Shown: in pieces, positions 12,768 to 22,030 of the stretch
How positions within the stretch are numbered: position 1 is the first letter of the stretch
Layout: each line of letters opens with the position of its first letter
From: Chloroflexota bacterium
GTDB lineage: Bacteria; Chloroflexota; Dehalococcoidia; SM23-28-2; RBG-16-64-32
Reading direction: 5' to 3'
Assembly (NCBI GenBank): GCA_036732045.1
Contig: DAINDD010000005.1
Location: 11,710-75,709 of the forward strand
Length of the DNA: 64,000 bases
Position numbers and translations under genes: made by a program
Notes under the pieces: model-generated
Seen by the model: the letters and a program-made list of their open reading frames with translations, nothing else
What the model was told of the DNA's origin: nothing
Databases searched by the model: none

Positions 12768-12875
12768 TAGGTTCGTTTGGCAGAAATCGTTTGACGTAGT
12801 GACACGGATCACATTCACGAACTAACTGAGCGCGTGCTAGAATGCGCGCGGAATTCATAGAAGGAGGGAACGGAT

Positions 12876-13349
12876 ATGGCAACTCGAGAAGAACTGATGG
12901 GTGGGTTCCAGTTCGTGCCGGCGCAGGCCAAGCGCGTGGCAGGGATGCTTGACGGCTTGAGCGAGTGGGACACCAAGCGGCCCGCCGGCTGGTGCCCGAA
13001 GGAGATGTTCACGCACGTGGCTGTCACCGCGGGCATGATCCCGATGGTGGGCGCCGGCATGGTTAGTGCGCCGCCCGAGGCCGACGTCGTCGCTGGCATG
13101 GACATCGCGGCGGTCAACCAGCAGGGCATCGACTCGATGGCAGCGATGGACACGAAGCAGGTCCTCGACGCGCTCTCGGCCAACTACGTCAAGCTGGGCG
13201 ATTGGGTCAAGGCCCTGTCGGACGAGCAACTCGAGAGCAAGCACACGTTCCTCGGAATGCCGATCACTGCGTCCGACCTGATCATGACGCTGTGCGTGAT
13301 GCACTCGATTCACCACCTCTACGAGGCGCCGCTGCCGGTCTCTGTCTAG
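12876..13349 (+). CDS. DinB/ClbS-like four-helix-bundle family protein (hypothetical)
   Basis: 157 aa; possible His motif HSIHHL near the C-terminus. Preceded by TAGAAT -10-like box and GAAGGAGGG RBS. Family assignment is tentative. Confidence 0.45.
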   Translation: MATREELMGGFQFVPAQAKRVAGMLDGLSEWDTKRPAGWCPKEMFTHVAVTAGMIPMVGAGMVSAPPEADVVAGMDIAAVNQQGIDSMAAMDTKQVLDALSANYVKLGDWVKALSDEQLESKHTFLGMPITASDLIMTLCVMHSIHHLYEAPLPVSV

Positions 13350-13754
13350 TTGCCCCAACTCGACGATAGACGAGTCCTCCTGCTCGGCGCGGAGACTGAC
13401 CTCGGGGCCGCCACGGCCACAATGCTGGCGAACGCTGGGGCCCGGCTGGCGCTCGTCTCGGCGAGCCGGGAGGCCGAGGCCGCGTTCGCGGTGCAGCGGC
13501 TGGCACGGCGGCTGAACGCGACCTCGCAGGCGATCGACGCGACGAACGAGGCGGCGGTGCGTGTGATGGTGCGCCAGGTCTCGAAGGAAATGGGCGGCAT
13601 CGACGCGGCCGTCTCCTGCGTTGCCGATGCGACGGCTCGTGAGCTCTTCGAGCGGCACGCCCGGCGGGAGATGAAGCGCACGGGCGAGGGCGTATACGTC
13701 GATGCGATAGAGACGCCGGACGTCGTCGCCGCGATTGCTGGCGAACGCGAGTAG
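13350..13754 (+). CDS. SDR-like N-terminal fragment (possibly degenerate)
   Basis: 134 aa with RVLLLGAETDLGAATATMLANAGARLALVS resembling an SDR Rossmann N-terminus but lacking the catalytic YxxxK. Start is TTG. May be non-functional. Confidence 0.3.
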   Translation: MPQLDDRRVLLLGAETDLGAATATMLANAGARLALVSASREAEAAFAVQRLARRLNATSQAIDATNEAAVRVMVRQVSKEMGGIDAAVSCVADATARELFERHARREMKRTGEGVYVDAIETPDVVAAIAGERE

Positions 13755-13787
13755 CTTGTAAGCTTGCCTCGCGCAAGATCCCCGTGG

Positions 13788-13831
13788 GTCAGGGCCCCAG
13801 CCCTGACGCCAGTCAAGGCTAGGGCCTTGAC
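13788..13831. promoter_or_regulatory. tandem hairpins / inverted repeats GTCAGGGC-ccca-GCCCTGAC and GTCAAGGC-tagg-GCCTTGAC upstream of the enoyl-CoA hydratase/SDR operon
   Basis: Two perfect 8-bp-stem palindromes 4 bp apart, ~40 bp upstream of the AGGAGG RBS at 13861. The same GTCAAGG/CCTTGAC core recurs at 32058..32108. Confidence 0.4.
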
Positions 13832-13871
13832 CTATCAGGTGGACGGACGGTGCGCCGCGAAGGAGGCCCGT

Positions 13872-14723
13872 ATGCCCTACGAGACGATTCTCTACGAGCC
13901 GGGCGACGGCGTCGCGCGGATCACGCTGAACCGCCCGGAGAAGCTGAACGCGATCTCCTGGCAGATGCAGGAAGAGCTGCAGCAGGCGCTCTGGCAGGCC
14001 GACCGCGACCCGGCCGTACACGCGGTAACGATCCGCGGCGCGGGAGGCTCGTTTTCCGCCGGCTACGACATCTCGCCGCCGCCGGGCGCAGGGGCCACGC
14101 ACGCCGCGTCCGGCCACACGATGGAGCGCGACGTCTGGTTCCTCGAGCAGGCCACGCGAATGCGGATGACGATCTGGGAGATGCACAAACCGGTGATCGC
14201 CGGCATCCACGGCCACTGCCTCGCGGGCGGCACGGACGTCGCGTTCTTGTGCGACATCGTCATCGCCGCCGACGACGCCAAGATCGGCTATCCGCCGGTG
14301 CGGGCGCTCGGCTCGCCGGTCAATCATATGTGGACGTACCTCGTCGGGCCGCAATGGGCCAAGCGGCTGCTGCTGACCGGCGACACGATTTCCGGGGCCG
14401 AAGCAGAACGCATCGGCCTCGTGCTGAAGGCGGTGCCGTCCGAGCGACTCGACGTTGAGCTGGACGATCTCGCGGGCCGGATGGCGCTGATCGACGTCGA
14501 TCTCTTGGCCGCGAACAAACGCATCGTGAACATGGCGCTGGAGCTGATGGGTGCGCAGACGATGCAACGGATGGCGACAGAGCGCGACGCGATCGCCCGG
14601 CAGGCGCCGATTGTACACGAGTTCTACGCGATGGCGAAGGAGAAAGGACTGAAGGCGGCGCTGGAGTGGCGCGACAACCGCTTCGGAGACGGTCGCGGCG
14701 CGAAGACGGGGGAAGAGGCGTAG
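13872..14723 (+). CDS. enoyl-CoA hydratase/isomerase family protein
   Basis: Crotonase fold (ARITLNRPEKLNAIS...GAGGSFSAGYDI). Start at ATG 13872 preceded by AAGGAGG RBS; the listed ORF starts further upstream. Confidence 0.85.
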   Translation: MPYETILYEPGDGVARITLNRPEKLNAISWQMQEELQQALWQADRDPAVHAVTIRGAGGSFSAGYDISPPPGAGATHAASGHTMERDVWFLEQATRMRMTIWEMHKPVIAGIHGHCLAGGTDVAFLCDIVIAADDAKIGYPPVRALGSPVNHMWTYLVGPQWAKRLLLTGDTISGAEAERIGLVLKAVPSERLDVELDDLAGRMALIDVDLLAANKRIVNMALELMGAQTMQRMATERDAIARQAPIVHEFYAMAKEKGLKAALEWRDNRFGDGRGAKTGEEA

Positions 14724-15536
14724 ATGGGCGTCCTCGACAAGCTCAGACTGGCTGGAAGAGTGGCGATCGTCACCGGCGCCGGGCGCGGGCTCGGGCGGGC
14801 GATGGTGCTTTCGCTGGCAGATGCGGGCGCGGACATCGTGGCCACGGCCCGGACGGAAGCGCAGGTGGAAGAGACGGCGGACCTCGTAAAGGCGCGCGGG
14901 CGAGCGTGCACCTGGGTGCGCTGCGACGTCACCGACTCAGCGTCTGTCGCGACGATGGTGCAGCGCACGCTCGATGCGCACGGGCGGATCGATATCCTGG
15001 TCAATAACGCGGGCGGCGCGACCGAGGGAATGGGCAACACGATCGACGACATTAGCGACAAGCAGTGGCGGATCGGCATCGATACGAATCTGACGGGCGC
15101 GGTCTACTGTTCGCGCGCGGCGATCCCGCACATGTTGGCGATAGGCGGCGGCAAGATCATCAATGTCACGTCCGGATTCGGGTTGCGCGCGGGGCGCAAC
15201 AACTACATGTATACCAGCGCCAAGGCCGGGCTCATCAACTTTACGCGTTCGCTGGCCCTTTCGTACACTGACCGCATACAGGCCAATCTCATTGCGCCGG
15301 GCTTCTTCCCGCACGGCGACCCACAAGCGATGGGCTTCACCGGCGGCGGCAAGTTCACCCCGATGGGACGCCTCGGCCGGGACGAAGAGTTGGGCCCGCT
15401 GTGCGTGTTCCTGGCCTCGGACATGACGTCGTACATGAACGGCCAGATCATCGTGCTGGACGGCGGCGGACTCGCCGGTGGGCACGCGCCGACCGGCTTC
15501 GCGCCGGTCGTGCCGCTGACGTGGGACATAGCCTGA
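14724..15536 (+). CDS. SDR family oxidoreductase
   Basis: AIVTGAGRGLGRAM glycine-rich motif, NNAG, YxxxK-type core. Confidence 0.85.
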   Translation: MGVLDKLRLAGRVAIVTGAGRGLGRAMVLSLADAGADIVATARTEAQVEETADLVKARGRACTWVRCDVTDSASVATMVQRTLDAHGRIDILVNNAGGATEGMGNTIDDISDKQWRIGIDTNLTGAVYCSRAAIPHMLAIGGGKIINVTSGFGLRAGRNNYMYTSAKAGLINFTRSLALSYTDRIQANLIAPGFFPHGDPQAMGFTGGGKFTPMGRLGRDEELGPLCVFLASDMTSYMNGQIIVLDGGGLAGGHAPTGFAPVVPLTWDIA

Positions 15537-16306
15537 TGGCGAGCGAGTTCTCGCTGGACGGCAAGGCCGCGCTCGTGATCGGCGCGTCGAACTCGATCGG
15601 GCGGGCGATTGCGGTCGCACTCGGCGAGGCGGGCGCGGACGTGGCCGTGGCGACGACAACGTTGGCGCGGGACGAGGAGGTGATCGCCAACTCCTGCTCC
15701 AACGAACTGTGGGCGCTCAACCGTAAGACGTTCGCGCAGGCGATTGACTCGTCCGACGAGCGCGATGTCGAGGCGCTGATCAGCCGTGCGGCGTCAGAGT
15801 TCGGCCGGCTCGACATCCTTGTGAACGCGCAGGACTTGCCGTTCGCTCAGCCCGCAGCCGAGATAGCATTCGCGGACTGGCGGCGCGTGATGGACGTGAA
15901 CCTCGGCGGTGTCTTCCTCGCCTCGCGCGCAGCTTCTTCTGTCATGCTCGCGCAGGGAAGCGGGCGGATCATCAACGTCGCGTCTGTGCTCGGCGAGCGT
16001 GGGATGGTCAACGGCGCTGCTTACTGCGTGGCGCAGGCGGGCGTGCTTAACCTGACCCGCGCGCTGGCGTTGGAATGGGCGCGGCACGGCATCAACGTGA
16101 ACGCGATCGGCGCGGGCTGGACCGAGGGGATGGGGATCATCGGCGGCGATGAGGGCCGCCAGAAGCTGGAACGCTACCTGCCGTACAAGCGCCTCGCGAA
16201 GCCTGAAGAGATCGCGGGCGCGGCGGTATACCTTGCGTCGGAGACGTCGGCGTATCTGACAGGCCAGGTGATCTGGATCGAAGGCGGCGCCCTGAGCCAC
16301 GTCTGA
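15536..16306 (+). CDS. SDR family oxidoreductase
   Basis: MASEFSLDGKAALVIGASNSIGRAIA...; ATG overlaps the stop of the previous SDR (TGATG). The listed ORF is over-extended upstream. Confidence 0.85.
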   Translation: MASEFSLDGKAALVIGASNSIGRAIAVALGEAGADVAVATTTLARDEEVIANSCSNELWALNRKTFAQAIDSSDERDVEALISRAASEFGRLDILVNAQDLPFAQPAAEIAFADWRRVMDVNLGGVFLASRAASSVMLAQGSGRIINVASVLGERGMVNGAAYCVAQAGVLNLTRALALEWARHGINVNAIGAGWTEGMGIIGGDEGRQKLERYLPYKRLAKPEEIAGAAVYLASETSAYLTGQVIWIEGGALSHV

Positions 16307-16339: not shown

Positions 16340-17479
16340 GTGAAGACGAAAGTTCCTGCCACCGAGCGCGCTGATCTCCGGCGCTACCAGGCCAATCTGG
16401 ATGACGAGATTGACGGCATCGCCATTTACCAAATGCTGGCGGCGGCCGAGAAAAACCCCGAACGCAAGCGCATCTTCTCGGAGCTCACAGAGGTCGAGGA
16501 GCGGCACGCCGACGTTTGGCGGAAGAAGCTGCGGGACAGCGGTGTTGCACCCCGCGAACACGGCCCGAGCCTGAAGATCCGCGCGATCGGCTTCGCTGCG
16601 CGGACGTTCGGTGTGCGCTCGGTCCTGCCCCTCGTTCGTAGCCTGGAAGCCGGTGCTTACGGTGCATACATGGCGCAGGACGAGGCGGCGCAGGCGATGG
16701 CGCCCGACGAGCGCGAACACCGGAAGACGATGTCGCGTCTGGAGCGCGGCGACCGAGAGCCCTCGGAGGCGATCCTTTCGCGGGAGCGCTGGCACCGCAC
16801 AGGCGGCGGCGGTGCGCTGCGGGCAACGATCTTCGGCGTGAGCGACGGGTTGACCTCCAACACAGCGCTGGTCATGGGCTTCGCCGGCGCGGCGACGAGC
16901 GGAAGCTTCGTGCTGCTGGCGGGCATCGCCGGCGTAATCGCTGGCGCATTCTCAATGGCGACCGGCGAGTATGTCTCGATGCGGGCTCAGCGCGAGCTGT
17001 TCGAGCGCCAGATTGAGCTCGAGCGCGCCGAGTTGCAGTCGGCGCCCGATGAAGAGATGCGAGAGCTTTCATTGATATACCAAGCGAAGGGCTTGCCAAA
17101 GAGCGAGGCCGACGCCACGGCCACGCGGTTGATGGAGAACCCGGACGTCGCTCTGAACACGCTCGTGCGGGAGGAGCTGGGCCTGGACCCCAGCGAGCTC
17201 GGGTCGCCGTGGGGAGCGGCGTCCGGTTCGTTCGTGGCCTTCGGACTCGGCGCGCTGCTGCCCGTGATTCCATTCTTCTTTGGCAGCGCCAGTGCGCCGT
17301 TCATCGCGGTGAGTGCGGCCCTGAGTGCCGTCGCTCTGTTCGCCGTGGGAGCCGGCGTTTCGTTGTTCACCGGCAAGAGCATGCTTTACAGCGGCGCGAG
17401 ACAGGTGGCGCTCGGCGCTGCTGCCGCGACCGTAACGTTCATCATCGGCCACATCATCGGCGTCTCAACCAACGTCTAG
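16340..17479 (+). CDS. VIT1/CCC1 family iron/manganese transporter with N-terminal ferritin-like (rubrerythrin-like) domain
   Basis: 379 aa, GTG start. N-terminal ~150 aa soluble domain with EE..H motifs, followed by GVSDGLTSNTALVMGFAGA and multiple TM segments typical of VIT/DUF125. Confidence 0.75.
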   Translation: MKTKVPATERADLRRYQANLDDEIDGIAIYQMLAAAEKNPERKRIFSELTEVEERHADVWRKKLRDSGVAPREHGPSLKIRAIGFAARTFGVRSVLPLVRSLEAGAYGAYMAQDEAAQAMAPDEREHRKTMSRLERGDREPSEAILSRERWHRTGGGGALRATIFGVSDGLTSNTALVMGFAGAATSGSFVLLAGIAGVIAGAFSMATGEYVSMRAQRELFERQIELERAELQSAPDEEMRELSLIYQAKGLPKSEADATATRLMENPDVALNTLVREELGLDPSELGSPWGAASGSFVAFGLGALLPVIPFFFGSASAPFIAVSAALSAVALFAVGAGVSLFTGKSMLYSGARQVALGAAAATVTFIIGHIIGVSTNV

Positions 17480-18115
17480 CGCCGCGATCTCATCGTCCGA
17501 CAAACCGAGCAGATCGCGCAGGACATAGGCGTTGTGCTCACCCGGCTCAGGCGCTGGCAGACGGATGTGCGCCGGCGATTCGCTCAAATGCCAGTGCGGG
17601 CCGGCAATCTCGATGGTCCCATTCCGTGTCGAGACCGGTTCCAGGGTCACGCCGTTCGACTCGCCGCGCGACGGCGAACCTCGTTGCGGAGCCGCGATGT
17701 CGATCCGGTCGCCTACGCCGGTGCGGCGTCTGTCCCATAGTGCGAGGCCGGCTGCTCCGGCCGCCGCGACGGCGGACATCACATCGTCGCTGGGCGGTAA
17801 CGACAGGACGATCAGGCGGTCGTTTCGCCGGCTCAGATCTTCGAATGTCAGGCCGAGGGCGCCCAGCGACTCGGCAACGACGATGTCGGACAGGTCAACG
17901 AGGCGCAGGATCGCGTCGCGGCCGGCCGGACTCGATACGTCGAGCGTGCAGCCGTACTTGTTGCAGTCCAGGCGTGCGTCCGCTCCCGCTCGCGTTGGCG
18001 GCTGGATGCGGATCACCTCCGCGCCCATGTCCCCAAGGAGACGCGCAGCGTACCGGCCGGCCCGGCCGGATGTCAAGTCCAGCACGCGCACGGCGAAGAG
18101 CGGCAGGCGGAACAT
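17465..18115 (-). CDS. CaiB/BaiF CoA-transferase family III-like protein, unusually short (217 aa)
   Basis: N-terminus VRVLDLTSGRAGRYAARLLGDMGAEVIRIQPP and NK..LD..SP.GR..LV...D.VV motif match family III CoA-transferases. The C-terminus keeps GEHN..VL..LG.SDDEIAAL, but ~180 aa of the central catalytic region are absent. Start at MFRLP (ATG 18115) overlaps the stop of the upstream GNAT gene. Confidence 0.55.
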   Translation of the reverse strand: MFRLPLFAVRVLDLTSGRAGRYAARLLGDMGAEVIRIQPPTRAGADARLDCNKYGCTLDVSSPAGRDAILRLVDLSDIVVAESLGALGLTFEDLSRRNDRLIVLSLPPSDDVMSAVAAAGAAGLALWDRRRTGVGDRIDIAAPQRGSPSRGESNGVTLEPVSTRNGTIEIAGPHWHLSESPAHIRLPAPEPGEHNAYVLRDLLGLSDDEIAALDVG

Positions 18116-18600
18116 CAGGCGATCCTCATCTCGTAGTCGAATACGCGGTAGGGTCCGATCATGCGCTCGCCGGTCAGCGTGAAGCCGTAACCTTCGTAAA
18201 GCTGGTGAGCGGCGGGCTGCCGTTTGGTCGTGTCGAGGATGACGCGGTCGTAGCCGGACTCGCGGCAGAACTCGACCGCCGTATCGAGCAGCGCCTTCGC
18301 CAGGCCGCGCCGCCGCCAGGCCTCGGTGACGCGCATTCGCCGCAGACGGCCCGTCTTCGCATCGACGCGGGCGATCGCCGCGATCGCGGCGAGGCCGTCC
18401 GGCGCTTCGATCACCCAGAAGTTGCAACCGGCGGAGAGGTACGTCTCGTCGATGCTGTGCAGGTCGTCCTCGTAGCCCTTCGCCGCGTCTCGGTACTCCA
18501 ATCCGGTCTGCTGCACGCCCTCCAAGTGCAGGCGCCAGACGTCGTCGTGGTCGCGAGCTTCGTAGCAGCGGATCCGCAGGGTCGGCGGCAGGCGGAGCAT
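18115..18600 (-). CDS. GNAT family N-acetyltransferase
   Basis: 161 aa; acetyl-CoA binding motif region RRMRVTEAWRRRGLAKALL (R/Q-x-x-G-x-G/A type). Confidence 0.75.
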   Translation of the reverse strand: MLRLPPTLRIRCYEARDHDDVWRLHLEGVQQTGLEYRDAAKGYEDDLHSIDETYLSAGCNFWVIEAPDGLAAIAAIARVDAKTGRLRRMRVTEAWRRRGLAKALLDTAVEFCRESGYDRVILDTTKRQPAAHQLYEGYGFTLTGERMIGPYRVFDYEMRIA

Positions 18601-18602
18601 CG

Positions 18603-19286
18603 CTAGATTACTCCCGCCGCGCGAAGCAGGGGAAGATCGGCCGCGCGCAGGCCCATCTCTTCGCAGAAGAACTGAGCATTGTGCTCGCCGAGAGCGGGGG
18701 CCGGCGCGTCTGTCCAGGCAACGGCGGACATCTGGAACGGCGCGCCCTCGTACGCGCCTTCACCAGACGGCAGGTGAAGCCCCAGGGCGACGGCCGAGGC
18801 GAGGCATTCCGGCGCGGCGATCTCGATGTGCTGGGGGATTTCGTGCGAGTCCGCGTTGTGCGCCGCGATCGCCGATGCCGCGAAAGCGTTGAGGCCGGCC
18901 GCGCACTCGGCGAGCGAGTCGCCGCTGCCCTGGATCGATGTCAGGATGATGCGGCGCTTGATCGCCTGCAGCTCCGCGAAGCCGAGCCCGAGCGCGTCTA
19001 TGGCACCCGGCGCGAAGCACTCGACGATCAGGTTCGCGCCTTCCACCATATCGCGGAAGAGCAGGTGGCCCGTCGCCGTGCGGATGTCCAGTGTGATGCT
19101 GCGCTTGCCGGCGGCAAGCCGGCTCCACGCTTCGTGAGGACGCAATGGGTTGCCCGCCGGCCGCTCGACGACGATGACGTCGGCGCCGTAGCCGGCAAAA
19201 AGCCTGGCACAGTATGCTCCGGCGATTCCGTCGGACAGGTCGAGCACCAGGAGATCGGCGAGCGTGGTCTCTGGTTCGTCAGGCAT
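18603..19286 (-). CDS. CaiB/BaiF CoA-transferase family III-like protein, unusually short (228 aa)
   Basis: LADLLVLDLSDGIAGAYCARLFAGYGADVIVVERPAG N-terminal motif and C-terminal ALGEHNAQFFCEEMGLRAADLPLLRAAGVI. Start refined to MPDEPETT (ATG 19286). Paralogous to 17465..18115. Confidence 0.55.
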   Translation of the reverse strand: MPDEPETTLADLLVLDLSDGIAGAYCARLFAGYGADVIVVERPAGNPLRPHEAWSRLAAGKRSITLDIRTATGHLLFRDMVEGANLIVECFAPGAIDALGLGFAELQAIKRRIILTSIQGSGDSLAECAAGLNAFAASAIAAHNADSHEIPQHIEIAAPECLASAVALGLHLPSGEGAYEGAPFQMSAVAWTDAPAPALGEHNAQFFCEEMGLRAADLPLLRAAGVI

Positions 19287-20037
19287 TGGCGTGCGATTGA
19301 CCTCCGTCAACGACGATCGTGGCGCCGGTGACCCACGAAGCCTTCGGCGAGCAGAGGAACACGACAACGGCCGCGACTTCCTCCGCTGTGCCGAAGCGGC
19401 CGAGCGGAATGTTCTGTTCAACGAAGCGGGCCATGCCTTCCGGGTCTTCCTGCTGGCGCCGGTACCAGGTCCCGGCAGGATGGCTGATCGAGCCGGGCGC
19501 GACGGTGTTGACACGGATGCCGTCCGGGGCGAAGGCCCGAGCCATCGCCTTGGCCTCGCTGATCAGTGCCGCCTTCATCGCGTTGTAGGAGGGCTGGCCG
19601 CCGGCCTCCTTGCCCCAGATCGACGACAGATGCACGATCGAGCCGCCGCCAGCCTCGCGCATCTGCGCCGCGACGAGCCGTGCCAGCCGCACCGCCGGTA
19701 GCAGCAGGACCTCGAACGATTGGCGCAACGCCTCGTCCTCGAAGCCCGGGGCCGAGAAATGGAGGCTCGTGACCAACGCGTCAACGCGTCCGAAGCGTTC
19801 GACAGCGGCGTCGACGAGACGTACACAGGCGGTCTCTTCCGTCAGGTCGGCGGCCACGGTCAGTACCTCTGCACCGGCAGCCTCCACCTCGCGTACAGCA
19901 TCGCGCAGTGTGGTCTCCTCGCGGGCGGCCATGACGACGCGGGCGCCCTCGCCGGCCAGCAACAGCGCGGCCGCCTTGCCGATCCCACGCGAGGCGCCGG
20001 CGACGATCACTACCTTTCCGCTGAGACCGAGATCCAT
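19279..20037 (-). CDS. SDR family oxidoreductase
   Basis: GKVVIVAGASRGIGKAAA glycine-rich motif. Confidence 0.85.
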   Translation of the reverse strand: MDLGLSGKVVIVAGASRGIGKAAALLLAGEGARVVMAAREETTLRDAVREVEAAGAEVLTVAADLTEETACVRLVDAAVERFGRVDALVTSLHFSAPGFEDEALRQSFEVLLLPAVRLARLVAAQMREAGGGSIVHLSSIWGKEAGGQPSYNAMKAALISEAKAMARAFAPDGIRVNTVAPGSISHPAGTWYRRQQEDPEGMARFVEQNIPLGRFGTAEEVAAVVVFLCSPKASWVTGATIVVDGGQSHANA

Positions 20038-20107: not shown

Positions 20108-22030
20108 TTAGATGCGGTCGCCAACAGGGAGGCAACCGGTGGGCAGTGGTATCTGGTTGGCGCCCGATAGCTTGATCAGCACTACGAGCACGTCTCGCGC
20201 TGTGATGGAGCCGTCGCAGTCGGCGTCAAGAAACATGTGGTCGCCGATCGCCGCGCCGATGCTTGGGCAGTCGTCCGGGGCCGGGCCGCGTTCCCTGAGC
20301 GCCAGGTAGTCCAGAAACTGCATTACATCGGTCTCGGTCACATAGCCGTCGCAATTGATGTCGCCCTGCCTGGGCTGAGGCCCAGCCGTCGGTGTCGGGG
20401 TTGGCGTCGGGACCGGCGACGGCGTGGGAGTCGGTGAAGCTGTTGGCGTGATGACGGCATGGAGCAGATAGCAGGCGGAGAACTCGGAGCTGCTCTCAGG
20501 GTCGGAGGCGGACATCGTGAGATAGACGTCTCCGGTAAGTTCGACGTTGTAAAAATTGCGGTTGAAGGTGTCCGAGGCAATAGAGGCGTTGAAGCCCAGG
20601 CTGCCCAGGAAATACCTGCCTTCGCCGTAGCCGCTCGGATCGCAAGCGTCGTTCCAGAAGAAGAACATGTTGTAGTAGTGGCCGGGATAGGTGTCCAGCG
20701 TGCCAAAAATCGTTAGCGTCGAGCCGTCGTAAGTGGCACCGGCAATGACCGGATAGTTCATAAGCCGGTTCGGACCCGTCGCGCTGTTCCCGTCGGTGCC
20801 ACCGTCGGCGTCCGGGCAGGTCGCCGGGTTTGAACCGGGGACGCAGGGAGGGGTGCCGTAGTCGTTCGGGAGCACCTGGCCGTCATCGTAGATGTCCACG
20901 CCCAAGCCACCGTTAGAGTACGTGAAGTTTGGGTCGACGTAGTTGTCCGGGCCGGCCGAGGCGGCCAGACCGACGCCGGCCCATGTGTTGTAGGCGATCG
21001 TGTTCTCTTCGCCGACGCTGAAGGCGCCACCGATGGTGTTATCTGAGGCGTCTTGCGATAGGTAGACGCCGTCATGCCCGTTCGGCAGCGGCGTCTCGCC
21101 GTCTCCAGCTACGCCGATGTAGTTGCCCTTGACGTTCATGTGGGCGCCCCCCGAGGTGGATATGGCAATGCCGTTGGCGGCGTTGCCAGAGACGAGGTTG
21201 CCGCCGTTGGAAACGCTGCCGCCGATCGTGCTTCCTGATCCCATAACCGTCCCGCCACCTCCCTGCATGTCGATACCGCTGGCGCCGTTCGGGAGGGCCT
21301 GCAGCCCTGTGACGTCTGTGCCGATAAAGTTACCCTCGATGTCCGACGGGGTGCCGCCGGTGACAGAGATGCCAGCGCCGGTGTTAGCGGAGATCAGGTT
21401 GCGCTTCGCGGGCTCGCCGCCACCTATGGCGTTGCCTGGCTCGCTGCTGCGAAGCGAGATGCCGAGGCCGTTGGGGCCTGCCGTTACGCCGTCCGGCAAG
21501 ACGCCGATGTAGTTGCCCACGATCGTGGCACTCGTGGCGAACGTCGCCACCTTGATGCCGTAGTCCGCGAAGTTTACGAAGGAAATGCCTTCAACAGTGA
21601 GGTTGTCGCTGGAAAGCCAAAGTCCCCACCGGTTGCCGGAGGTTAACTTGTCGCCGTTAAGGACGATCTGGATGTTGGCGTTGCCGGGCTGCATCGCGGC
21701 GGCCGAATTGGGGTGGGCACCCGGCTGCGAATAACCGTCGATCGTCAGGGCGTTCTTCGAGATGATCGCGGGCAGTTCGCTTCCCGTTGGTTCGATAACG
21801 TGCTGGCCGGAGCCGAGGATGTTGAACTTAATCGTGTCGCCGGCCTGGGCCGCATTGATCGCCTCCCGGAGAGTGCAGTCCTGGGGAGTGCAGTTGCCGT
21901 CATCGTGATCATCGGCCGTCGTAACGACGACGTTACTGGCTGCGGCGTCCTGCCTGCTCGCGCCGCCGGCTACGGCGAGTGCGAGAACTACGATCAGCAA
22001 AGCGGTGGCGGGCGAGAAGGCGTTGCGCAT
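20108..22030 (-). CDS. secreted right-handed parallel beta-helix repeat protein with C-terminal dockerin-type domain
   Basis: Signal peptide, then conserved N-terminal CTLREAINAAQAGDTIKF motif and long Gly/Asn-rich beta-helix repeats. A PT-rich linker (TPTASPTPTPSPVPTPTPTPT) leads to two dockerin-like Ca-binding repeats (GDINCDGYVTETD ... DADCDGSITARD). Confidence 0.75.
   Translation of the reverse strand: MRNAFSPATALLIVVLALAVAGGASRQDAAASNVVVTTADDHDDGNCTPQDCTLREAINAAQAGDTIKFNILGSGQHVIEPTGSELPAIISKNALTIDGYSQPGAHPNSAAAMQPGNANIQIVLNGDKLTSGNRWGLWLSSDNLTVEGISFVNFADYGIKVATFATSATIVGNYIGVLPDGVTAGPNGLGISLRSSEPGNAIGGGEPAKRNLISANTGAGISVTGGTPSDIEGNFIGTDVTGLQALPNGASGIDMQGGGGTVMGSGSTIGGSVSNGGNLVSGNAANGIAISTSGGAHMNVKGNYIGVAGDGETPLPNGHDGVYLSQDASDNTIGGAFSVGEENTIAYNTWAGVGLAASAGPDNYVDPNFTYSNGGLGVDIYDDGQVLPNDYGTPPCVPGSNPATCPDADGGTDGNSATGPNRLMNYPVIAGATYDGSTLTIFGTLDTYPGHYYNMFFFWNDACDPSGYGEGRYFLGSLGFNASIASDTFNRNFYNVELTGDVYLTMSASDPESSSEFSACYLLHAVITPTASPTPTPSPVPTPTPTPTAGPQPRQGDINCDGYVTETDVMQFLDYLALRERGPAPDDCPSIGAAIGDHMFLDADCDGSITARDVLVVLIKLSGANQIPLPTGCLPVGDRI

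Follow-up and report, generated by a model that had tools for sequence, protein, structure and literature searches.

Family III coenzyme A (CoA) transferases are interlocked dimers, in which the active site is formed by the large domain of one chain together with the small domain of the other. What, then, is a pair of family III genes that have both lost the small domain? This question is raised by a four-gene operon in a 64,000-nucleotide (nt) stretch of contig DAINDD010000005.1 (assembly GCA_036732045.1; the whole stretch is referred to here as the window), whose host is an uncultured Dehalococcoidia bacterium. The operon encodes a short-chain dehydrogenase/reductase (SDR), a GNAT N-acyltransferase and two short CaiB/BaiF-like proteins, which we call mini-CoAT A and mini-CoAT B (A and B, or together the minis). 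We find that A and B are, with high confidence, evolution-reduced forms of the two subunits of a BbsEF-type heteromeric family III CoA-transferase. They are probably no longer ordinary CoA-transferases, and the role that we propose for them is that of a degenerate, CoA-ester-binding A-B heterodimer acting with the SDR. To this reading as a whole we assign a probability of roughly 0.55; its functional part, which was drawn from sequence comparisons, is tentative. The genes of the operon and the sites discussed below are located as follows (lengths in amino acids, aa; Frc numbering for the reference enzyme; pLDDT, predicted local distance difference test score of the AlphaFold2 models).

20037..19279, minus strand: classical SDR, first gene of the operon, 252 aa (Pfam adh_short_C2, E-value 3e-52)
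19286..18603, minus strand: mini-CoAT A, 227 aa, a BbsE-like (partner-type) family III subunit with the large domain only (PF02515, E-value 3e-30)
18906..18908, minus strand: codon of A Glu127, in the alignment column of the nucleophile
18738..18794, minus strand: short linker of A, approximately residues 165-183, standing in for the small domain (Frc 216-375); pLDDT 84-96
18600..18115, minus strand: GNAT N-acyltransferase, 161 aa, between A and B (Pfam Acetyltransf_1, PF00583, E-value 9e-15)
18115..17465, minus strand: mini-CoAT B, 216 aa, a BbsF-like (catalytic-type) family III subunit with the large domain only (PF02515, E-value 2e-24)
17783..17785, minus strand: codon of B Asp111, by alignment in the column of the nucleophile (Frc D169; BbsEF chain B D178)
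17642..17689, minus strand: short linker of B, approximately residues 143-158, standing in for the small domain (Frc 211-362); pLDDT 70-74, the lowest of the B model

The initial annotation of this DNA had already grouped these four minus-strand open reading frames (ORFs) into one unit, and the grouping stands, with lengths for A and B of 227 and 216 aa instead of 228 and 217. Its account of the gene junctions is right in part. The SDR stop and the A start do overlap by 8 nt (ATGCCTGA), whereas the overlap of the GNAT stop with the B start is 1 nt (TGATG) and not 4 nt, and the A stop is separated from the GNAT start by a 2-nt spacer (TAGcgATG), all as read directly from the sequence.

Membership of A and B in the CaiB/BaiF family is supported by profile matches that exceed the gathering score of PF02515 (23.3 bits), though the profile is covered only in part. 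A scores 106 bits, with residues 10-154 aligned to positions 1-157 of the 366 in the profile, and B scores 86.6 bits, with residues 10-107 aligned to positions 4-119 plus a second stretch. When compared with PDB sequences by phmmer, the first ~125 aa of each mini match residues 1-131 of full-length enzymes and the last ~50 aa match residues 340-400. The two proteins are 31% identical to each other and both keep the GEHN tail (at residue 200 in A and 192 in B), which bears out the earlier description of truncated CaiB/BaiF paralogues that retain the N-terminal region and the C-terminal tail. The AlphaFold2 models are compact and single-domain (pLDDT 94 for A and 90 for B), and Foldseek matches them to the large domain of BbsEF, Frc, YfdW and SUGCT with a query-normalised TM-score of ~0.8; the best match of A is 9fn0_A, at 0.82. 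The large Rossmann-like domain, made of the N-terminal part and the C-terminal tail, is thus predicted by the models to be present in both proteins. All PDB targets among the best 50 matches for each model are 350-430 aa long, and none of the NCBIfam models reaches its cut-off for A or B, all matches falling far below. Frc/YfdW, CaiB, SUGCT, MCR and Mct share with the minis the PF02515 match, the large-domain fold, the GEH(N/T) tail and the nucleophile position. However, those enzymes are interlocked homodimers of 355-430 aa, whereas the minis lack Frc 131-166 and approximately 211-375 and would form no ring.

The losses can be placed precisely in Frc numbering. By alignment, A lacks residues 49-57, 131-166 and 216-375, as defined against full-length relatives at ~50-65% identity, and B lacks residues 42-56, 101-104, 127-166 and 211-362. 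What has been deleted is the loop before the nucleophile and the entire small domain, including the Gly-rich loop 258-261, and in both proteins the small domain is replaced by a linker of ~15-20 aa. The initial annotation was therefore right that the small interlocking domain is missing. It was mistaken about the catalytic Asp, which it had counted among the losses: in alignments to Frc and to 9fn0_B the nucleophile column is retained and is filled by D111 in B and E127 in A. In Frc, the acyl group is surrounded by the 131-166 loop and the Gly-rich loop 258-261, the latter of which is held to shield the intermediates from hydrolysis. With these enclosing and shielding parts gone, closed-site CoA transfer has probably been lost as well. 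From the fold, we infer that the minis are unable to form the interlocked ring dimer.

The origin of the pair is indicated by the structures of succinyl-CoA:(R)-benzylsuccinate CoA-transferase BbsEF (9fn0 and 9fol), a heteromeric family III enzyme. Among the related loci that we examined (numbered L001 and upwards), L007 (in GCA_040961615.1) encodes full-length versions of both proteins, of which A is closer to chain A (9fn0_A, 3e-49, vs 9fn0_B, 1e-19) and B to chain B (9fn0_B, 2e-58, vs 9fn0_A, 1e-28). The Asp of B falls in the alignment column of D178 of chain B, which the title of entry 9fol gives as the CoA adduct; chain A has a Tyr there. In GTDB genomes, A- and B-type genes are adjacent in all 58 pairs examined. 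Across these pairs every full-length B has Asp in the nucleophile column, and the A-type subunits of full-length pairs are variable there (Q, L, E, D, S, N or G). The chain matches, together with an Asp that is always present in full-length B and a variable column in A, identify A as the BbsE-like partner and B as the BbsF-like catalytic subunit. Since the column is variable in full-length A types and holds Tyr in BbsEF chain A, Glu127 of A is probably not catalytic. An A-B heterodimer is plausible in view of the descent from the two BbsEF subunit types and of the adjacency of A and B in the 58 pairs.

The likeness to BbsEF extends to gene arrangement and fold. As in the window, BbsE and BbsF are adjacent paralogous genes, the A lineage being closest to chain A (Tyr) and the B lineage to chain B (D178), and the A and B models superpose on the large domains of BbsEF with query-normalised TM-scores of 0.76-0.83. 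The differences are also clear. BbsE and BbsF are ~410 aa long and have full small domains, whereas the window minis, at 227 and 216 aa, lack the small domain and two active-site loops; identity in the structural alignments is only ~16-20%; and no glycyl-radical or benzylsuccinate synthase genes occur among the annotated neighbours at approximately 11.5-25 kb of the window. A literature search for truncated or small-domain-less family III enzymes, or for a paper on the BbsEF structure, returned nothing relevant among the papers searched.

The minis are not peculiar to one contig. Homologues shorter than 240 aa make up 56 of the 114 matches to A that are at least 195 aa long, and 49 such homologues were found for B. 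They are from Chloroflexota/Dehalococcoidia metagenomes, and on many contigs the frames are intact and of the same length down to ~47% identity. In comparisons with the orthologous loci L009 and L001, A and B each have a ratio of nonsynonymous to synonymous substitution rates (dN/dS) of 0.26-0.27; the SDR has 0.13-0.22 and the adjacent VIT1 gene 0.09-0.16. Both A and B are under purifying selection.

Full-length versions of the operon link the minis to their ancestors. Clusters in which A is ~397 aa and B ~414-422 aa were identified at L007, L014, L015, L020-L022, L024 and L025. They comprise an SDR, A, an optional GNAT and B, followed in most by a convergent VIT1 gene, with enoyl-CoA hydratase (ECH) and SDR genes nearby in the longer loci. 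The complete four-gene arrangement occurs with full-length subunits at L007, L014, L021 and L022. It is an inherited arrangement and not special to the minis. Among the close relatives of A are full-length proteins of 394-398 aa (~50-65% identity), the window SDR is 67% identical to the SDR ahead of the full-length A-B pair in L024, and the window GNAT is 57% identical to the one between full-length A and B in L022. The Chloroflexota clusters of this kind (L007, L014, L021, L022 and L024) resemble the window in gene order, in the convergent VIT1 and in the nearby ECH and SDR genes, and their A and B are ~50-60% identical to the minis over shared columns. Unlike the window, they retain all loops and the small domain, and the Asp of B is invariant. 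At L015 (4998-7160) a partly reduced A (314 aa, with most of the small domain gone) accompanies a full-length B (405 aa) that keeps the Asp, so the reductions of the two subunits need not coincide.

In phylogenetic trees the window minis belong to a single clade (neighbour-joining bootstrap 0.99) that is sister to the nearest full-length clade and has longer branches. A second reduced set, in which A is 229-230 aa and B is 248-255 aa, was found at L090 and L092 and forms a separate clade. Monophyly of all minis together was recovered in just 8.5% of bootstrap replicates, on which ground the small domain appears, from these sequences, to have been lost at least twice. An SDR again lies upstream of the reduced pair in L090, in a neighbourhood that differs from that of the window. 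In this second set (L090, 4309-5747; L092, 4305-5768) the Asp of B is kept, and the neighbours include genes for a methyltransferase, an alpha/beta-hydrolase, an SDR and electron-transfer flavoprotein.

B proteins also form a stepwise series of sizes, with representatives of 376, 356, 301, 274 and 248 aa, down to 216 aa. When a profile of the short B was used, ~18 of the best 150 representatives (clustered at 50%) were short B-type clusters and ~120 were tandem CaiB-CaiB fusions of ~800 aa. DddD-like fusions of ~790-880 aa (representatives P0254-P0399) adjoin full-length A-B pairs at L016 (1668-4262, minus strand) and L023 (592-3048, minus strand). They offer a parallel in that two different CaiB-like modules work as a pair. 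In these fusions, unlike the minis, the halves are joined and each is full-length, and we found no fusion of two mini halves.

The usual companion of the pair is the SDR, whose gene immediately precedes A at all mini loci examined and at most full-length loci, usually with overlapping stop and start codons. The window SDR has the expected motifs, with GxxxGxG as GASRGIG at residues 14-20, Ser138/139, and YxxxK as YNAMK at residues 151-155. The GNAT, whose acyl-CoA-binding motif RxxGxA is RRRGLA (residues 96-101), occurs in the window and at L001, L004, L005 and L009, but two mini loci (L003 and L013) and five full-length ones (L015, L016, L018, L023 and L024) have none. It is thus no constant partner but an optional member of the cluster. 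At L007 (6325-7326) the protein between A and B is a 333-aa double GNAT, compared with the usual single domain of ~160 aa.

These comparisons give good support to the following course of events. On an ancestral branch within uncultured Dehalococcoidia, both subunits dropped two active-site loops and the whole small domain, leaving two compact Rossmann-like large domains of ~220 aa that would form no interlocked ring dimer. The operon kept the order of its full-length forerunner (SDR, A, optional GNAT, B). As to mechanism, A and B probably still pair via their large domains and probably still bind the CoA moiety of a thioester, with the acyl-enclosing and covalent-intermediate-shielding parts gone. 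Their present role may be to bind CoA esters as an accessory of the translationally coupled SDR, with no catalysis or weak hydrolysis at most. The GNAT, where present, could be an optional downstream consumer of the same acyl-CoA. Large expansions of CaiB/BaiF and SDR genes have been described in Dehalococcoidia (PMC5395668), and lineages rich in both are a natural setting for such degeneration.

The alternative that survives best is that A and B together are a still-active minimal CoA-transferase. In this case Asp111 of B would form the usual anhydride and thioester intermediates in an open site. A new A/B interface, the SDR or the GNAT would complete this site, or else it would suit a carboxylate too bulky for a closed one. 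Several observations speak against a non-catalytic accessory or weaken the case for it. The Asp is present in 29 of 29 B proteins of the window's sub-clade, and the B proteins of 240-305 aa, a set of 38 to which the independently reduced lineage belongs, have Asp in 31 cases and Glu in 4 (35 of 38). Given this retention in the sub-clade and, for the most part, in the second reduced lineage, residual Asp-dependent chemistry in the window B is possible. The purifying selection on both genes and their tight translational coupling also fit a working enzyme. Moreover, full-length A-B pairs without an SDR directly upstream occur at L007, L016, L018 and L023. The trees are neighbour-joining trees of 346 shared columns (for A, B, and A and B together), and in the Frc reference sequence D169 is at the expected index, with the column confirmed independently with 9fn0_B.

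An active transferase is unlikely nevertheless. All acyl-pocket and protective elements of Frc (131-166, and the small domain with loop 258-261) have been deleted. The invariance of the Asp says little, as 66 of the 211 sites in B of the window's sub-clade are just as invariant. Furthermore, Gly or Ser takes the place of the Asp in orthologues whose operon and neighbourhood match those of the window. In the sister sub-clade of minis, which has the same operon, only 1 of 20 B proteins keeps the Asp and 19 have lost it. The loci where B lacks the nucleophile are L003, L004, L005, L013 and L017, and two of these, L005 and L017, keep the genes that flank the operon in the window and have Gly in the nucleophile column. 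Judging from these sequences, the constraint on the Asp is relaxed in the wider clade of the window. We regard as similarly doubtful the view of the pair as a natural non-interlocked, large-domain-only family III CoA-transferase that is catalytic via Asp111 of B, whether it transfers CoA to bulky acceptors at an open site or acts as a thioesterase. Were the minis catalytic via this residue, the interlocked ring, seen as a hallmark of the family, would be dispensable, and the fact that Dehalococcoidia lost it independently more than once would point to a new minimal enzyme architecture.

The initial annotation had favoured a minimised CoA-binding heterodimer that hands an acyl group to the GNAT. 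This idea draws on the position of the GNAT between A and B, with its 2-nt spacer and 1-nt overlap, and on the orthologous GNAT (57% identity) found between full-length A and B in several relatives, including its doubled form of 333 aa in L007. However, the GNAT is missing from two mini loci and five full-length loci, as listed above, and the A-B unit must function without it there. An inconstant GNAT makes this an improbable core function. Less probable still is an acyl-CoA hydrolase in which Asp111 would attack the thioester and water would resolve the exposed anhydride. In its favour are the retention of the Asp while the shielding elements were removed and the role ascribed to the Frc Gly-rich loop in keeping intermediates from hydrolysis. 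Against it stand the sister sub-clade without the Asp and the loss of the substrate-binding loops.

Finally, decaying pseudogenes, or frameshifted fragments of one former gene, can be dismissed: although ~170-200 aa are gone from each protein and the branches are longer than those of the full-length clade, each mini contains both the N-terminal and the C-terminal part of a different paralogue and, aligning at both ends of the fold, is not a fragment, while same-length frames are intact on many contigs to ~47% identity, dN/dS is ~0.26, the models are compact and confident, and the genes are packed without leftover spacer. One other locus, L008 (4171-6134), is less orderly. Its A is 282 aa long, without the small domain and with the loops kept, and is followed by a 400-nt gap and a B-like ORF that is missing its N-terminal portion; the locus may be in decay, or the assembly or gene calling may be at fault.

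What is new is a conserved, selected lineage in which a heteromeric enzyme has lost the small domain from its two subunits together. The minis are indeed a conserved short sub-family, one of the possibilities that the initial annotation had raised, although not a known one: neither a curated family nor a solved structure among the matches listed, nor any paper found, covers small-domain-less family III proteins. The size series amounts to a deletion experiment done by nature, from which one could learn what the large domain is able to do by itself (CoA binding, pairing, residual chemistry) and by which route an enzyme becomes a pseudoenzyme. Public records of a Dehalococcoidia metagenome-assembled genome hold proteins identical to A and B, labelled just "CoA transferase". 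Under this label, metabolic reconstructions of CaiB-rich Dehalococcoidia (PMC5395668) would count the minis as working enzymes, which is probably wrong.

Several other features of the surroundings were recorded. We found no further family III gene in the window besides A and B, and a promoter and terminator scan did no better than on shuffled sequence. At 13872-16306 (plus strand) lie an enoyl-CoA hydratase gene and, after it, two neighbouring FabG-like SDR genes whose stop and start codons touch; synteny of this arrangement extends to L001, L005, L009 and L017. Taken with the BbsEF-like pair, ECH and the SDR pair loosely resemble BbsH plus BbsCD. We considered the SDR pair (14724-16306) as BbsCD-like and rejected the assignment beyond a loose analogy, as BbsD is only PDB match no. 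15 and is indistinguishable from FabG; no acyl-CoA dehydrogenase or thiolase gene was found near these genes. A 587-aa ORF (12855-14618, minus strand) lies antisense to the ECH gene; rather than a gene, it is probably an artefact of high G+C content.

The 3' end of B overlaps a convergent rubrerythrin-VIT1 gene (16340..17479, plus strand) by 15 nt, at 17465-17479, and the same convergent overlap recurs in L001 (7826-7840) and L009 (9814-9828). Directly upstream of the SDR lies a gene for a 640-aa protein (20108-22030, minus strand) that comprises a beta-helix region, a Pro/Thr-rich linker and a dockerin-like C-terminus. This gene is syntenic in relatives yet fast-evolving, with 62% identity to its counterpart in L009 and a dN/dS of 0.33.

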